DNA from: an uncultured Bacilli bacterium
GTDB lineage: Bacteria; Bacillota_I; Bacilli_A; RF39; UBA660
Assembly: GCA_947629445.1 (NCBI GenBank)
Contig: CANRDU010000001.1
Location: 68,642-132,641, forward strand
Direction of reading: 5' to 3'
Length of the DNA: 64,000 bases
Below the pieces are notes generated by a model. The model was not told where the DNA came from and made no database searches. It saw nothing but the letters and a program-made list of their open reading frames with translations. A program made the position numbers and the translations under genes. This document shows, in pieces, positions 8,793 to 53,989 of the stretch (positions are counted from its first letter, which is position 1; every line of letters begins with the position of its first letter).

Positions 8793-11700
8793 TTATTTTC
8801 TACGAATACCCTTTCTAATACCCCAAATAAACTCTAAACTAATTAATAAGCAAGCTGTTACAACAATGCCAATAAGCGCTAATAAATCTTCGTTTTTCAT
8901 AGCCTCTTCGGCTTTCTTTTTCTTTTCAAGTTGCTCTTTGCTTAACTCAGTAGTATTGCTGCTTACTACAGAATTAGAATTATCCTCTTGCTGATAATTA
9001 GAATCATTATTATCATTATCAACTACGGAATTACTATTAGTATTTATATTACTATCGGTATTACTGTTCGTATTCGTATTACTGTTGCTATGCGTATTGC
9101 TATTTGTACTAGTATTACTGTTTGTCTTAGTATTACTGTTAGTTTTAGTGTTACTATTCGTTTTGGTATTACTGCTACTATGTGCATTGCTATTTGTTTT
9201 AAAATTACTGCTGCTATGTGTATTACTATTTGTACTCGTATTACTATTGGTCTTAGTGTTGCTGCTTGTGTTAGTATTAGAATTTTTATCATTCTTATCA
9301 TTAGGATTTGTACTTGATGAGGTTCCTCTTATTACTTTAATTGTCATTTCATAGGCCTCATGATTCATATCTCCATTGAAACGAACTGTTAAATAATTAT
9401 CGCCTTCTACTAATGCAATATCTTCATCTTTCCACTGCCATCCACTTGGTAAATGAATATCTCTTAAACTTGTTGTATCTTTTGATATAGTGATTTCTGA
9501 AGATACCATTACAGATGGTTGCTTTGCTTTTTTTACTTCAAAAGTACCTACTAATTCTCCAGTATATATACCAATACCCTTTATAGTAATTTGCTTTTCT
9601 CCTGCATCGTTATTTTCAGGCCAAATGATTTCATAATCAAAATCTTCTACGAGGGTGTGCCCTTCATTATTTTTAACTGTTACACTTGGTCTTTGAATAT
9701 CCCCAGTATAGTATAAATCACTATCCTCTATCGTTACGTCATACCCATGAGTAATGTCTATTGGATCAGATGTAGAATCTACTAAAGAAAGTATAACTAC
9801 AACTTCACTAGTATTGTTATCACTATCCGTTACGATGATAGTTATATAGTATGTTCCTTCTTTTAACCAACTTCCATCCCAATCCGTTTGAATAGATACT
9901 TTCTCACTATTCAGTTCAATTGGACCATCTTCCTCATCGTAAATAGAAATGATATTTTTAAAGTAATCTAAATTCTTAGGTTCTTCTTTGGAAATATCAA
10001 ATTGAAATTTTGTTTGATTTCCTGTTATTTTAATTTCAGGTCTGTTTCCATTATCTTGCGTTACTAAAATCTTCATCTCATAAACTTCATAATTAACCTT
10101 ATCATGATATATAGCAATCGCTTCCACAGTTTTCCCTGCTTTAAGAGAAGTTTTTGGGTTTTGCCATGACCAACCTTCTGGTAATCCCAATACCTCTCCT
10201 AGTGTATCTTGATCAACAGTTGCTTGCATTTTTCGTTCTGGCATAGTATCTGGTCGTTCGGCTTTGGCAATCTTAAAGTTTTTTTCTACTGTTCCTTTAT
10301 AAATACCTAAACCTGTTATTTTGATGATACCTGTTCCAGCATTTACATTATTTTCATAGGTGATGCTATAGTCTTCATCTTTAATTAATTCCCTATCGCC
10401 GTCTTTTACGGTTATAGAAGGTTCATGGGCATGACCATTATAAATATATCCACTAGAAATATAACTAACAGATAAATCCTCCATAGATTTCGTCTTATTT
10501 ACTTTATTTTCATACAAATTAATGATGGCGGCAGAAGCATAATTTCCCCCTTTTGTTTCTAGTCCTGTAAGGCGAATGTAATTTGCTTGTATTGGTGTTT
10601 CAAAGAAATAGGATTTAATAGTATTATCGTTAGCCCATTCAATGTCATTCGCAACTACATTCCAATTTTCACCATCCATACTAGTTTCAATTTTTGCTTT
10701 GGTAATTCTACCATTCGCCGAACCATCCTGTCTTGGCAAATATTCTAACTTAGAAATTTCAGCTCCATCAGTAATTTCAATTTGAATCCATTTTTCATTG
10801 TCAGAGCCATCCCATTTTGTGTGCCATATTGTTCTGTTATGACCATCGATAGCCTTACTAGGATCTTCTCCTCCTTGATTAGAAGAAGCGGTTGCTTTCA
10901 ATCTAGAAATAGGAATATAAGACCTTGTCTCATCATATTCAGCATCTAATTCAAAATTTAAAGATACGGAAGGTCCTGGAAGAGTTACTCCTGTATAAGA
11001 ATTTCTAACAAGAATGGTTTTGTTGCCAGATAAATCTGGTAGTTTTTCTGAGAATTTCGTCCATTTGCTAACATCTTCATTCTCACGGAAAACACTGAAA
11101 GGTGAAGATGTTTGTACTTTCCATTCCATCGTTGATGTTACTCCCATTACCTTATTTTCCCATTCATTGGCATATAAGTTAGTTGGAATACTTGCCTCTT
11201 TTAAATCAATGATAAAACAGTTTTTAATATCATCGCGATCAGATGTTCCCACAATGTGAACAACAATATCATCATCAGCATCTAATTCTTGAATACGATT
11301 ACTTAAATCAATAAAAGTAGAACCACTTGGAACTCTTGTCCAAGTACGTTCACCATTATAGTTAAGACTAAATTCTATTTCTACTGGTGTCGTAGCATAA
11401 GATCCTACCAAACGAAGTTGATTTGGATAATCTCCATCAAAAGAGAAGTCAACAACTTTATCACTTGTTTGACCTAATAAGCTTTTCGCCATATCTCTCG
11501 TTACTCCGGATTGAAGATAAACCCCATCTTTTACTTGGCTCATCTCTGTTAATACAGATTGTTTCGTGTTGAGATATAGCGCACGATTATCTAAAGAAAT
11601 CTCAGCTTCAATAAGTCTTAATAAATCCACCATTGGAAGTGGCCACTCTTTCATGTTTTCCATAATACGAGTAGCTAAAGTATAATAGTCAGATGCTGTT

Positions 11701-48851: not shown

Positions 48852-49877
48852 TTATTTTTCATTAAGGTATAGACGAATCGTTTCTCCATCAGCAATTTTA
48901 ATACCGGCTTTAGGAGATTGATAAGTAACCGTACCTGTTCCCTCATATTCTACTTTAAAGGATTTTAAATTCTTCATAGCATCTTTTAGTTCCATACCTG
49001 TAACATCTGGTACTACACTATAAGTTTTATCCAAATAGACAAACTCTTTTTCAATTTCTCCTTCTTGTTCTTCAATTCCTAAAATGGGAATCGCAGAAAG
49101 TAGAATATTTTTAGCAATGGGAGCAGCTACTGTTCCTCCATACTGCGTAACTCCCTTAGCATTATCAACTGCTACATAAATAACAATCTTAGGATCATTA
49201 GCCGGTAAAAAACCAATGAAAGACGTGATATAGTTTCCCGTTAAATAACTTCCATTTTCCGCTTTTTGTGCGGTACCGGTCTTTCCCCCTACTCGATAAT
49301 TGGGAATATATGCATTATGTCCTGTACCTCTAGCAACAACACTTTCTAGAGCATATCGTACCTTACTACTAGTTTCTTCACTAATCACTTTGCGTACAAT
49401 TTTTTCTTCGGTTTGTAAAATAACTTGATTCGTTTCTGGATCGTTAATACTTTTGACAATATAAGGTTTATATAAAATACCTCCATTGATAGCGGCACTT
49501 ACCGCCACTACTTGTTGAATAGCAGTTACTGCAACTCCCTGTCCAAAAGCAGTCGTAGCCGTTTCCAAATCTCCAATTTGATCAACATCAAATAAGATAC
49601 CACTAGATTCTCCAGAAAGTTCTATGCCTGTTTTTTCCCCAAATCCAAAATTGCGAATGTAGGAAAATAATTTTTCTTTTCCAAGTCGTAGTCCTAAGTT
49701 GACAAAGCCAGTATTGCAGGAATTTTCTACCACCTCTAAATAAGTCTCTGTTCCATGTCCCCCATGTTTCCAACAGTGCAAAGTAGCACCTTCCACCATA
49801 ATCGCTCCAGAATCATGAAAACTTTCATTCTCTAAATCCACTGTTTTTTCCTCTAAAGATGCTGCTAACGTAATAAT
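48852..49877 (-). CDS. spoVD: spoVD 3' segment (transpeptidase remainder plus PASTA), separated from the 5' segment by the intervening element
   Basis: In frame from attR: IITLAASLEEK..CWKHGGHG..SCN..AFGQG..GGKTGTAQK..PASTA, closely resembling Bacillus SpoVD. Confidence 0.88.
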   Translation of the reverse strand: MITLAASLEEKTVDLENESFHDSGAIMVEGATLHCWKHGGHGTETYLEVVENSCNTGFVNLGLRLGKEKLFSYIRNFGFGEKTGIELSGESSGILFDVDQIGDLETATTAFGQGVAVTAIQQVVAVSAAINGGILYKPYIVKSINDPETNQVILQTEEKIVRKVISEETSSKVRYALESVVARGTGHNAYIPNYRVGGKTGTAQKAENGSYLTGNYITSFIGFLPANDPKIVIYVAVDNAKGVTQYGGTVAAPIAKNILLSAIPILGIEEQEGEIEKEFVYLDKTYSVVPDVTGMELKDAMKNLKSFKVEYEGTGTVTYQSPKAGIKIADGETIRLYLNEK

Positions 49878-49913
49878 TTTAAACGTTGCTCCCTTTTTTA
49901 TACAAAAAAAAGA

Positions 49914-50213
49914 TTAAATGTAATCTTTTTTCAGCCAATAACGCAATAGTTTTTCCTGTTCTTCCTTACTGATACATTGATAATAAAGCATAGATAAGAT
50001 ATCTTTACATTCTTCCGATAAATTTTGATCTTTCAAATTTTTATCTTCTTCTATATAAAATTCCTTTGTAGAATCTGCTGCTAATGTTATCAATTGACTC
50101 ACCAATTCATCAGAAATTTTTTCCTGAAAAGATTCCTCACAATAAGCTAAAACCGTTAAGAGTTCTTTTGCTAAATCACTATCAAATTCTTCTTCCAATT
50201 CTATCTTCTCCAC
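49914..50213 (-). CDS. Small acidic hypothetical protein (element cargo)
   Basis: 99 aa; overlaps the end of the upstream cargo gene. Confidence 0.65.
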   Translation of the reverse strand: MEKIELEEEFDSDLAKELLTVLAYCEESFQEKISDELVSQLITLAADSTKEFYIEEDKNLKDQNLSEECKDILSMLYYQCISKEEQEKLLRYWLKKDYI

Positions 50214-51096
50214 CTTCTAAAAAAATATTTTGTAATTTATCAAACGCCGATTTTATTTTTTGAAAAGTTCGAGTTATCGCTAACTCACCAATTTCTTCTT
50301 TTCCGAAAACTTTACCTAAGTTTCTCTTTTGCATCCGGGCAAACTTTTCATATTTTTCTTGAGAAAAAATTTCTCTACCAAAATAAAATTTTTCGGAAGG
50401 ATCTGGCATAGCTAAAACAGGAATGTTTCTATCTCCTACCATCTTACGGACAAAATTTACCCGAGAACGAGGAACACAAATACACTGAATAGATTCTAAG
50501 GGCATGCCACCATATATTCCAATTTCAGAAATATCAGAAGCAATATTCACTACTTTTTGCTTTCGGATTTCTTCTTCTGAGGTTGCAATCATCACCCCAA
50601 AAGAGGATTTCGCCTTTCCTTCCTTGGAAAGTATCATGGAGTAATTTTCAGAAATATCATACACATCTGAAAAACTAACAAATGGTCTTTTGCCTTGAAT
50701 GCGGCTCCAAGATTCTCCCGTTTCAACGGCAATCCCCATCTCTTGTAAAGTGTTCACACTATTTAACCCATATTGTAAAATTCCAGGAAGTGCATTTGCC
50801 CTAGTTCCATGGAAAAATTTCACTTGATGATCTACAAAAAATTGAAAGGTTTCTGGTTCTGATAATAATAATCTTGCCATTCCTAGACGTCTTTCAATTT
50901 CAATATAAGGGCTATTCCTTCTTTCCATATTACTAGAAACACTATATTGTTGCCATATTCCTCGATATAATATTTCTTTTAATTTTTCAAGAGTTTCTTC
51001 ATCTTGCGCTAATCTCAAAAAGGCATTACAAAGCATCTCATATTTAGGATAATCTGCATTCAACTGTTCTAAAGAATAACTAGAATACTGCATCAC
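50182..51096 (-). CDS. Hypothetical protein with ADP-ribosyltransferase-like motifs (element cargo)
   Basis: FFHGT..LPGILQYGL, FVSFS and SEI motifs in ART-like order. Confidence 0.55.
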   Translation of the reverse strand: MMQYSSYSLEQLNADYPKYEMLCNAFLRLAQDEETLEKLKEILYRGIWQQYSVSSNMERRNSPYIEIERRLGMARLLLSEPETFQFFVDHQVKFFHGTRANALPGILQYGLNSVNTLQEMGIAVETGESWSRIQGKRPFVSFSDVYDISENYSMILSKEGKAKSSFGVMIATSEEEIRKQKVVNIASDISEIGIYGGMPLESIQCICVPRSRVNFVRKMVGDRNIPVLAMPDPSEKFYFGREIFSQEKYEKFARMQKRNLGKVFGKEEIGELAITRTFQKIKSAFDKLQNIFLEGGEDRIGRRI

Positions 51097-51120: not shown

Positions 51121-51150
51121 ATTATACGCTAGGAAAGAAATATTTGTCAA
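51121..51150 (-). promoter_or_regulatory. sigmaA promoter of the cargo operon
   Basis: TTGACA-18-TATAAT. Confidence 0.7.
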
Positions 51151-51168: not shown

Positions 51169-52893
51169 TCAAGATAAAAGATAGACATTATAAAGAAAGC
51201 GGTTAGAAAGATGATTCTTTCTTTTTCTTTCTACTGTATCACAAACTTGATTTTCTAGATAGAGGATAGCATCTCCATTTAAAGTATCGAGATTGATATG
51301 TTCTTCGTTTGTTGATTTATCTTCTCCCAATAAATTAACAAAGATATCTAATTTTAAATAATAGCGATTTTCTTTTATTTTTGATACGATGATACGCTTG
51401 ATAAAAGTTCGAATAAAGTCTTCTAGTAAATTTTTTTCTAGTTCTTCTTCAATTATAGAGGTAATTTCTTTTCTTTTGGAAGAATGATTGGAAAACTTTT
51501 GGATTCTATTTTGTAATTCTTGTTTTTCTTTATAGAGATTTTCCTTTTCCTTTTCATATTCCTCCCACTGACTTTTTAATGATTCTCTTTGAATATCACC
51601 ATGAAAGGCAAAATCTAGAAGCATCGCTTTTTTTTCTTCAATAATTTGGATTTTATGTTCTAACAAAGTCAACGTTTTTTCATATTCTTCTATATCTATA
51701 TTTTCATATCGTTTTAATAAATCATTCATCAATTTCTCCTTCGAAGGAAGAATTTTATTCATAATAAGAGAAGAAATATGATACAAATCTATTTCAGCAA
51801 TAATGGGAGAAATACAAGCAGATTTACGATACTGTAAATATAAACCGCAACTCCAAGTAGGACGATTTTTTCTTTTACTATTATAAGACCTTTGAAAATT
51901 AGTAGCATGTTCCCTACAATAAATTTTGGAACTAAAAGGATACTTTACTCCCCCTGACCAGTGATGATTATTCCAATACCGCTTTGTACGTTTTTTTAAT
52001 ACCTCATTGGCTTTTTCCCAAAGTTCTTCCGATAAAATAGCAGGAACACTGCCATCTTCACACTTGTATAAAATTTGTTCATTTCTATCATTTTTCTTTC
52101 TTCTTTTCGTTCGATAATCCATAACTTCATAAGTCTTTGCGCGATAATAACCCTTATACTTAGGATTTTCTATCATTCGTTTTAAAGAATCTTTATCATA
52201 TAAATTTCCTTTCCTATTATGATACCCCATTTCGAATAATTTTTTGGAAAGTTTTTGAAAGCCATATTGACCACTGGCATATAACGTAAACAAAGTTCTT
52301 ATAAAAGCAGCTTCACTCTCCTCTACAATTAATTTGCATTTTTCTTTTCTATAACCTGTAATATTAGAGGATCCTAGTACATGACCTTTTAAAATGGCCT
52401 CTCGATGACCAAATTTAATTCGTGTTGATAATTTTCTAGATTCTTCTTGGGCTAAATTAAACATAATATTTAAAATCAATTCGGAATTAGAATCAAATGT
52501 ATGTAAATTTTGATTTTCAAAATACACCCCTACTCCACAATGTTTTAAAATTCTAATATAATGAATACTATCCTCTAAGTCACGAGCAAAGCGAGATACT
52601 TCTTTGGTAATAATTAAATCAAATTTATTAGTTTGAGCATCATGAATCATTTTTTGAAAACTAGTTCTTCCCTTTACTCTAACGCCTGTTTTTCCCTCCT
52701 CTACATATCCTCCCATGAAAGTCCAATTCGGTTTAGAACGGATATAATTTTCATAATATTCAGACTGGTTAGATAGCGAGTTTTTCTGTGCATCGGATTC
52801 CGTCGATACCCGTCCGTAGTAGCATACTCGAAGAGGAATATTATAAATTTTTTCTCCTGCCAAAAGAGATTGTACAATTTCATCATAACGCAT
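51169..52893 (-). CDS. Large serine recombinase (SpoIVCA/CisA-like architecture)
   Basis: YGRVST catalytic Ser, KEVSRFARD, AQEESRKLS, recombinase domain, zinc ribbon (CREH..C..C) and coiled coil. Confidence 0.95.
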   Translation of the reverse strand: MRYDEIVQSLLAGEKIYNIPLRVCYYGRVSTESDAQKNSLSNQSEYYENYIRSKPNWTFMGGYVEEGKTGVRVKGRTSFQKMIHDAQTNKFDLIITKEVSRFARDLEDSIHYIRILKHCGVGVYFENQNLHTFDSNSELILNIMFNLAQEESRKLSTRIKFGHREAILKGHVLGSSNITGYRKEKCKLIVEESEAAFIRTLFTLYASGQYGFQKLSKKLFEMGYHNRKGNLYDKDSLKRMIENPKYKGYYRAKTYEVMDYRTKRRKKNDRNEQILYKCEDGSVPAILSEELWEKANEVLKKRTKRYWNNHHWSGGVKYPFSSKIYCREHATNFQRSYNSKRKNRPTWSCGLYLQYRKSACISPIIAEIDLYHISSLIMNKILPSKEKLMNDLLKRYENIDIEEYEKTLTLLEHKIQIIEEKKAMLLDFAFHGDIQRESLKSQWEEYEKEKENLYKEKQELQNRIQKFSNHSSKRKEITSIIEEELEKNLLEDFIRTFIKRIIVSKIKENRYYLKLDIFVNLLGEDKSTNEEHINLDTLNGDAILYLENQVCDTVERKRKNHLSNRFLYNVYLLS

Positions 52894-52897
52894 AGTT

Positions 52898-53053
52898 TTA
52901 TACCCTCTGCAAAGAGGATTTTATTTTCTGAAGTAACTCATCCTCTACCCTAAAAAAAGTTTTTTCATCAATAACGTTTTTCTGAAATAAATGACTATTC
53001 ATGATTCTTTGAATTTGCAATTCTAATATTTTATTTTTAATCACTTTTATCAC
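52898..53053 (-). CDS. Small (48-51 aa) ORF upstream of the recombinase; candidate recombination directionality factor
   Basis: Hand translation (VIK)VIKNKILELQIQRIMNSHLFQKNVIDEKTFFRVEDELLQKIKSSLQRV; GTG starts at 53053 or 53044 (SD GGTGA); stop 4 nt before the recombinase ATG. Confidence 0.6.
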   Translation of the reverse strand: MIKVIKNKILELQIQRIMNSHLFQKNVIDEKTFFRVEDELLQKIKSSLQRV

Positions 53054-53059
53054 CCATAA

Positions 53060-53089
53060 ATCCTATGCTTTATTCTAAAATAGATGACT
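53060..53089 (-). promoter_or_regulatory. Putative sigmaE-like promoter inside attL
   Basis: GTCATCT...CATAGGAT, with 16 nt between TCAT and CATA. Confidence 0.45.
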
Positions 53090-53107
53090 AAAAAAGGGCT
53101 CTACATT

Positions 53108-53989
53108 TTTAAAAGTAGACCCTGGTTCATACGTCATCCATATCGGCAAATTACGATTAATCTCTTCACTTGTATAATCTTGATAGTTAGAAGGAGAAAA
53201 GTTAGGTCGAGAGGCAATCGCTAATATAGCCCCACTATTCGGATCCATAGCAAGCGCAAAAGCTTGATCAGCTTGATACATAGACATCACATTATCCAGT
53301 TCTCTTTCTACTGCTTCTTGTAGTTCAAAATCAATCGTTAACGTGATATTCATGCCATCTTGAGGCTGTTCATAAATTTGACTTAACTGTAATTTATTAC
53401 CCTTAGCATCACTAAAATATTTAATAGCACCGTAACTACCTGTTAGATATTCATCATAAATTAATTCTAAACCACTTAACCCTTGATTATCGATTCCCAC
53501 AAAACCTAATGTTTGAGCTAGATAGGTATCATATGGATAATTTCTTTTCGATTCTTTTACTAAATAAACGCCAGATAGTTTTAAAGCCGATATTCTATCA
53601 GCAATCTCGTTGGATAATCTTCTTCCTTCTGGGTGGACTCTTTCAATAGAAGTTTTTTTCGTAACATGCTTTAACATCTCTTCATAAGAGACAGATAAAA
53701 TTTCTGATAATGTTTTGGCTGTATATTCTTTATCTTCTATTTGATTCGGAATTAAAACAAGAGAAGTAGTCGTAATATTACCAGCAAGAACAATACCATT
53801 TCTATCATAAATTTTTCCTCTATTCGCTTCCAAAGGAAGATTTCTACTCCAAAGACTAGTAGCATAATGATTGAGTTTTTCATAACTAATTACTTGAATA
53901 TAAAATACTTTGCCAATAATCACAACAAATAAAAAAAGAATTACCACTAATACAAACTTCATACGAGCATTCATTTTCTTAACAAACAT
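53108..53989 (-). CDS. spoVD: spoVD 5' segment (TM, PBP dimerisation domain, up to EPGSTFK); reads 10 codons into the element to a stop at 53075
   Basis: RGKIYDRNG, GLSGLE and RNLPIWMTYEPGSTFK motifs. Confidence 0.9.

Follow-up and report, generated by a model that had tools for sequence, protein, structure and literature searches.

The spoVD intervening element

The window, by which we mean the whole 64,000-nucleotide stretch of DNA analysed here, carries on its minus strand a spoVD-like gene for a class B PBP that is interrupted just past the catalytic STFK motif. Between the two halves of this gene lies an element encoding a large serine recombinase (LSR) and, directly in front of the recombinase, a small open reading frame (ORF) that is the subject of this study. 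The features of the locus are listed below in the direction in which spoVD is read.

53075..53989, minus strand: 5′ half of the spoVD-like PBP gene (Pfam PBP_dimer and the start of Transpeptidase), reaching 10 codons into the element
53107..53113, minus strand: attL core TTTAAAA, at the junction of the spoVD 5′ half and the element
53089..53108, no strand assigned: terminal inverted-repeat arm P′, pairing with 49881-49900 (repeat I11, 20 nt, 80% complementary)
53060..53067, minus strand: CATAGGAT, a putative −10-like box resembling those read by the mother-cell sigma factors sigmaE/K, from the sequence
53049..53054, minus strand: Shine–Dalgarno (SD) sequence GGTGAT, 4 nt before GTG 53044, from the sequence
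52898..53044, minus strand: small ORF, 48 aa plus stop (MIKNKILELQIQRIMNSHLFQKNVIDEKTFFRVEDELLQKIKSSLQRV), from the ORF listing, with its start taken from the conserved SD spacing
52898..53053, minus strand: the same ORF read from an alternative GTG start at 53053, giving 51 aa
51169..52893, minus strand: large serine recombinase, 574 aa (Pfam Resolvase, Recombinase and a weak Zn_ribbon_recom match)
49914..51096, minus strand: cargo, comprising a 304-aa ORF (50182-51096) and an overlapping acidic 99-aa ORF (49914-50213), from the ORF listing
49881..49900, no strand assigned: terminal inverted-repeat arm P (inverted repeat I11), inside the element
49877..49883, minus strand: attR core TTTAAAA, at the junction of the element and the spoVD 3′ half
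48852..49876, minus strand: 3′ half of the spoVD-like PBP gene (rest of Transpeptidase, and PASTA)

In the orientation of spoVD, therefore, the element reads attL, small ORF, LSR, 304-aa ORF and overlapping 99-aa ORF. When the two cores are joined computationally, 3,230 bp are removed and a single uninterrupted ORF of 635 aa results. The rejoined PBP carries PBP_dimer, Transpeptidase and PASTA domains in one chain, as expected of a gene split by a sporulation-gene intervening element. A perfect sigmaA consensus promoter (TTGACA-18-TATAAT, 51121-51150, minus strand) is found between the LSR stop codon and the 304-aa cargo gene; with this promoter of its own, the cargo is probably expressed separately in vegetative cells, independently of the excision genes.

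We considered whether the interrupted gene might encode the essential division PBP and rejected this, as a second, intact bPBP of 756 aa is encoded within the same dcw cluster. The presence of this protein, which would cover vegetative growth, points to the split gene being the sporulation paralogue. The genome itself encodes Spo0A and SpoIVA. The two spoVD halves are 78–87% identical to their same-genus orthologues, compared with only 57–60% identity for the corresponding LSRs, and such conservation of the halves indicates that the split gene is still in use, implying that excision occurs.

The spoIVA gene of this genome is also split, at a locus outside the window (G000:C23:859-5846). Matches to Pfam SpoIVA_ATPase positions 1-129 and 121-237 lie ~4.2 kb apart on the same strand, and the intervening DNA encodes a different LSR, sharing 26% identity with the window LSR, together with an unrelated 61-aa ORF that overlaps the LSR start, two ORFs for membrane proteins and one resembling an ABC ATPase. 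In total, the 1.32-Mb MAG from which the window comes has seven LSR matches.

The small open reading frame

A preliminary description of the sequence had drawn attention to a small ORF between attL and the recombinase, and had noted an SD sequence, GGTGA, in front of it. Both are present: the ORF on the minus strand at 52898-53053 in its longer form, the SD sequence as GGTGAT (53054-53049), which is conserved in orthologues. The arrangement GGTGAT-N4-5-start is repeated in the closest orthologues (L049–L059, L012 and L013), with both motif and spacing also found in L025. In L049–L059 it takes the form GGTGAT-N5-TTG, with the TTG immediately following an in-frame stop codon, whilst other orthologues have GGTGAT-N5-ATG. 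Because the start codon in L049–L059 abuts an in-frame stop, the 48-aa form is better supported than the 51-aa form, and GTG 53044 is accordingly the best-supported candidate for the start of the product.

The TAA stop codon of the small ORF (52900-52898) is separated from the recombinase ATG (52893-52891) by a spacer of 4 nt (AACT). This distance had been given correctly in the preliminary description, where it was taken to suggest translational coupling. Coupling is not required, since the recombinase has its own SD sequence (GAGGG) within the 3′ end of the small ORF and since the gap between small ORF and LSR ranges from −20 to +40 nt among orthologues. The two genes are operonic, then, but not necessarily translationally coupled. 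A natural stop-codon read-through fusion is seen in L008 and L014.

Conservation and linkage to the recombinase

Relatives of the LSR in 101 related genomes, at identities from 60% down to ~30%, almost always have an ORF of 36–104 aa whose end falls 0–40 nt ahead of the LSR start, and these upstream ORFs share a gap-free core, I(I/L)N..L(Y/F)..N.I(D/S/T)...(Y/F)......LLK. Six-frame profile searching of the same 101 genomes gave 38 matches (E<=3.3e-4), and in all but one case (37/38) the match is co-oriented with an LSR gene and immediately precedes it; for matches outside the set used to build the profile, the figure is 10 of 11. An independent scan of GTDB species genomes found the small ORF of this family preceding every one of 65 LSR relatives at 34–78% identity, but not in front of four more distant relatives (25–27% identity). 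The gap-free 35-residue core is kept from 78% down to ~34% LSR identity. Conservation beside homologous recombinases, which had been proposed as a check on the original observation, is thus clearly seen.

Evidence for selection comes from orthologues L008–L011, where dN/dS is 0.06–0.12 at dS 0.36–0.65, indicative of purifying selection. The family is also large. A profile built from the syntenic ORFs recovered 315 clusters at 50% identity when searched against 1.84 billion proteins; at 90% identity the number of clusters was 1,506. Their members are almost all 40–90 aa in length, and none is named or has a Pfam domain. A word-indexed homologue search with the single 51-aa query returned nothing, homologues surfacing only with the profile.

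That the ORF is short, begins with GTG, lies ~55 nt from the attL core and is not called by gene finders in its own genome would all suit a fortuitous, untranslated reading frame in an AT-rich stretch of leader or att arm. Such a frame is hard to reconcile with the dN/dS values, the 35-residue core, the conserved SD sequences, the hundreds of called homologues and the confidently predicted fold described below, and this explanation can be regarded as effectively refuted. The small ORF is a genuine, conserved and selected gene.

Eight close relatives of the window element (L037–L044) are all inserted in spoVD at STFK and are all co-oriented with spoVD. Across the nine spoVD-splitting elements, the window element included, only the small ORF and the LSR are common, with cargo and gene order varying. 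Being encoded within the 3,230-bp element and conserved together with its LSR, the small ORF is placed as a gene of the recombination directionality factor (RDF) class would be.

The 304-aa and 99-aa cargo ORFs were considered as RDF candidates in turn. Both are absent from most related elements and in one genome (G015) both lie outside the element, and they were rejected on these grounds. The original remark that the element contains no other candidate was therefore not literally correct, as these two ORFs are inside it, but it holds in the sense that neither is conserved in related elements.

Predicted fold and relationship to SHOCT proteins

The small protein is basic (pI ~9.7). A helical segment had been predicted at the outset, and AlphaFold2 modelling using a 40-sequence alignment bears this out, giving a two-helix hairpin (helices 2–21 and 27–46) with a mean pLDDT of 94.1. 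Scans of the window ORF against Pfam, PHROGs and NCBIfam yielded no meaningful match; a GvpG match with an E value of 0.02 was dismissed. Nothing was found at E<0.1 when the family profile was compared with all PDB chain sequences, and Foldseek with the AlphaFold2 model returned no significant match, only generic helical hairpins (ESCRT-I and YqgQ, for example). Library scans revealed no recognisable DNA-binding motif in the 36–48-aa hairpin.

The preliminary description had also likened the helical segment to small SHOCT-like ORFs found before recombinases. In one respect this comparison is borne out, because bona fide SHOCT_2 (PF20612) small ORFs do occur upstream of more distant LSRs: in L035 and L036, in the Erysipelothrix phage phi1605 record (49 bits) and in the Clostridium phage CWou-2020b record (38.6 bits). 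In related genomes, four of the six above-threshold SHOCT_2 matches lie directly upstream of LSRs. These Firmicutes mini-proteins occupy the same position and orientation relative to the LSR as the window ORF, and the two families may share a helix-turn-helix hairpin pattern, L..LY/LD.G/N.I(T/D)..(E)F/Y......LL.

In another respect the likeness falls short. Unlike the SHOCT_2 mini-proteins, the window protein and its close relatives score below the Pfam gathering thresholds, which are 24 bits for SHOCT_2 and 27 bits for SHOCT (PF09851). The window ORF does not match Pfam SHOCT even at E<=10, sub-threshold matches are confined to four (SHOCT_2) and two (SHOCT) of 26 family members, and six-frame searches of the 101 genomes with PF20612 and PF09851 did not recover the window family, which thus falls outside both Pfam families. 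More sensitive comparisons, made with the SHOCT hairpin pattern L..LLD.G.IT.EEF...K..LL in view, do detect similarity: hhalign of the A2 profile against 18 true SHOCT segments gave a probability of 69% and an E value of 4.5e-5 over 27 columns in motif register, and the same profile cross-matches a SHOCT_2 protein at E 5e-5. We read this as distant SHOCT relatedness or convergence. Searches of the literature library used here identified no paper linking SHOCT to (serine) recombinases and no published function for SHOCT_2.

The large serine recombinase

The best solved-structure matches to the catalytic domain of the LSR are a Clostridioides difficile conjugative-transposon recombinase (3g13, E 8e-32) and TnpX. 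In the AlphaFold2 model of the LSR, a coiled-coil hairpin (H385-430/H436-486, tip 431-435) is followed by a four-strand C-terminal beta-domain (498-573). The enzyme is closest to the TndX/TnpX-like recombinases, with a C-terminal beta-domain. Since TndX/TnpX-type enzymes can excise without an RDF, an RDF role can be put forward for the small protein as the best candidate function only.

These same features raise the possibility that the window LSR is itself a bidirectional enzyme of the TndX/TnpX type that has no RDF, with excision timed by transcription of the operon and with the small protein doing something unrelated, for example in maintaining the element or interacting with the host. Besides the structural matches, the beta-domain that follows the coiled coil would favour such a reading: Shin et al. 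suggest that C-terminal LSR extensions may block the usual RDF site and propose that some LSRs extended in this way are RDF-free. An unrelated role, however, would leave unexplained why the small ORF is linked at close to 100% to one LSR clade, and diverges along with it, despite the differing cargo of the elements, and we consider this explanation improbable.

Residues ~424–456 of the LSR, at the coiled-coil tip (MLLDFAFHGDIQRESLK; ~51526-51624, minus strand), display a SHOCT-like helix-G/N-x-I-helix pattern. A database protein of 183 aa (P0006) joins a small ORF of the 68-aa type to sequence resembling the C-terminal beta-domain of the LSR (…IKLDIFIKTGE…) and is probably a deletion derivative in which the two genes have been fused.

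When the small-ORF profile was compared by hhalign with a 577-column LSR alignment, the coiled-coil tip was the top match, at a non-significant E value of 0.094; with the true SHOCT profile the tip was the single best match, again non-significant (E 0.054). The small hairpin could conceivably reproduce, as a separate protein, the tip of the LSR coiled-coil arm and act as a coiled-coil decoy. We rate this as a long shot. Were it true, the hairpins would be the first RDF family to keep its place beside the integrase gene throughout a large Firmicutes recombinase clade, SHOCT_2 partners included.

Expression of the small ORF and the recombinase

No terminator-like sequence and no sigmaA-type promoter site separates the small ORF from the spoVD 5′ half. 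With no terminator in the way, read-through from the spoVD promoter is the simplest source of a transcript. The B. subtilis spoVD gene is sigmaE-dependent.

A promoter closer to the small ORF may also exist. The putative −10-like box CATAGGAT has a possible −35 sequence, TCATCTA, 13 nt upstream, and an identical CATAGGAT is present in L012. Together, box and −35 sequence resemble the sigmaE consensus, ZHATAXX-14-CATACAHT. Much better candidates, TCATATT-14-CATACGAT, precede the small ORFs of L008, L009 and L011. Across the family, motif matching places CATAnnnT in 57 of 80 non-redundant upstream regions, an enrichment over the 20.2 +/- 4.0 seen in shuffled sequences.

In a large subgroup with small ORFs of 66 aa (L060–L113), the region upstream of the small ORF has a hairpin and T-run followed by conserved AAGTATTATTTT-N-TCATAGTTTTAAATAAAGGAG, with a −10 box of the CATA type ~15 nt ahead of the SD sequence. 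The block reads as a dedicated promoter-like unit.

Comparison with known systems

The skin element of B. subtilis is a 48-kb defective prophage, whilst the window element is 3.2 kb; skin interrupts sigK, and the window element spoVD. The skin unit attL-skr-spoIVCA-attR nevertheless has the same architecture as the window element: in both cases a small gene precedes the LSR gene, beside attL, and a mother-cell sporulation gene is split. The two differ in that skr and spoIVCA share 101 nt, read in different frames, whereas the window pair is separated by 4 nt. Skr, a protein of 64 aa encoded immediately upstream of and overlapping spoIVCA, is under sigmaE control and is a proven RDF (PMC6957869).

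A second parallel is with the gin element, which interrupts gerE in B. cereus. Its RDF, GirX, is only 42 aa long, has no known motif and is often left unannotated; it was identified as the only gene conserved among related elements and was then verified biochemically (PMC5595907). Like the window element, gin is a non-phage intervening element, and the argument that led to GirX, that of the only conserved gene, is the same as that used here. Whereas the window small ORF directly precedes its LSR, girX is found in another region, away from girC rather than immediately in front of it. The gin element is also much the larger, at 28.6 kb with three recombinases compared with 3.2 kb.

Two further RDFs, SprB of SPbeta (58 aa) and CD1234 of the C. 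difficile skin element (72 aa), are likewise small, and in both cases sigmaE/K-dependent expression restricts LSR excision to the mother cell. In these two systems the LSR genes are expressed constitutively. CD1234 is sigmaE-dependent, with a transcription start site 14 bp before the start codon (PMC5025042). Both SprB and CD1234 are acidic and encoded away from the integrase gene, whereas the window protein is basic and its gene adjoins that of the LSR. In SprB, the C-terminal helix alone is essential (PMC11722253), and that a single helix can carry the essential contacts suggests that a 48-aa hairpin is large enough to serve as an RDF.

A candidate recombination directionality factor

LSR-mediated excision normally needs an RDF, and the known RDFs are small proteins without shared sequence. 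A protein of this class binds its cognate LSR, typically where DBD2 meets the coiled coil, and is needed for attL x attR recombination while inhibiting attP x attB. The genes of known RDFs generally show no synteny with that of the integrase (PMC12286644), which speaks against the RDF reading of the window ORF. Taking the evidence above together, we suggest that the 48-aa hairpin is the dedicated small partner of the LSR, its function most likely being that of an RDF, a proposal in whose favour we see a slight balance of probability. Several points keep us from placing it higher: the catalytic domain of the LSR is nearest to those of the C. difficile conjugative-transposon recombinase and TnpX, a beta-domain of the kind that may block the RDF site follows the coiled coil, and obligatory co-expression of RDF and LSR would hamper integration. 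At odds with such obligatory co-expression, the elements have clearly colonised several sites.

If the hairpin is an RDF, events might run as follows. The small ORF and LSR would share an operon transcript co-directional with spoVD, which would begin either at the spoVD promoter and read through or at the sigmaE/K-like CATA-type promoter beside the att arm, so that both proteins would appear in the sporulating mother cell. The hairpin would there bind the LSR and permit recombination of attL with attR at the TTTAAAA cores; the 3,230-bp element would leave and an intact 635-aa spoVD would be rebuilt.

The LSR extension and the co-expression problem make a non-directional accessory or regulatory protein bound to the LSR the main rival to this proposal. 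Such a protein might regulate its own operon, be needed for assembly or stability in integration and excision alike, or modulate recombinase activity in general. The strictly kept upstream position and the co-expression suit a constitutive subunit or regulator better than they suit a switch, SHOCT domains are regarded as oligomerisation modules, and SHOCT_2 mini-proteins are found before the LSR arrays of the phi1605 and CWou-2020b records, where obligatory co-expression of an RDF would be awkward. Skr, on the other hand, is an RDF encoded in exactly the same position, the hairpin of 36–48 aa has no recognisable DNA-binding motif, and the elements need to be excised with nothing else conserved in them that could give directionality. 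We see the accessory role as possible, though on the unlikely side.

An RDF function for the hairpin family would have several consequences. Most serine-integrase toolkits lack their RDF half, and RDFs are hard to find, because they have no common sequence or fold and usually no synteny with the integrase. Should the family supply this LSR clade with its RDFs, hundreds of cognate integrase–RDF pairs could be picked out by position alone, and at 36–70 aa these RDFs would rank with the smallest known. An RDF role would further account for the way in which uncultured gut Bacilli with small genomes can keep spoVD (and, here, spoIVA too) in pieces that are reassembled at sporulation. Even without an RDF role, the protein stands as the unstudied, near-universal partner of a large recombinase clade. 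We are dealing with a new, unannotated family of small partner or RDF genes upstream of the LSR in sporulation-gene intervening elements, for which the RDF reading is plausible but unproven.

spoVD as an insertion target

A literature search for spoVD intervening elements returned nothing relevant. We inspected the spoVD site in 20 same-genus genomes. The gene is uninterrupted in six (635–642 aa), and in four more it is continuous at this site but truncated at ~422–428 aa. Eight, the window genome included, have it split at STFK, one of them (G014) being split further downstream as well, and in the remaining two it is split only at the downstream position. Within the genus the gene is split at three positions, namely at STFK, at around aa 420 and ~60 aa after STFK, which makes it a hot spot for insertion.

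A second group of elements, in which the small ORF is 68 aa long and the LSR ~40% identical, splits the same PBP elsewhere (L045–L048). Among the cargo carried at the aa-420 site by this group are Fic, AAA_14/DUF4143, Metallophos, DUF6904 and SEC-C.

Cargo also varies at the STFK site. In L041 (G015:C16), homologues of the 304-aa and 99-aa cargo ORFs are found at 8963-10130, directly downstream of the spoVD 3′ half and outside the element, which indicates that the cargo module moves independently of the recombinase unit. L040 (G017:C1; minus-strand offsets 2522, 3902 and 6088) is a tandem composite. It begins with an attL carrying a window-type P′ arm, after which both cargo ORFs, the 304-aa and the 99-aa one, are represented by homologues; then come an internal attP-like hybrid site, AGGCGTACCG-TTTGAAA-ATGTAGATACC, the small ORF and LSR, and an attR with a different type of arm. 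The whole looks like a cargo-only cassette beside an autonomous element.
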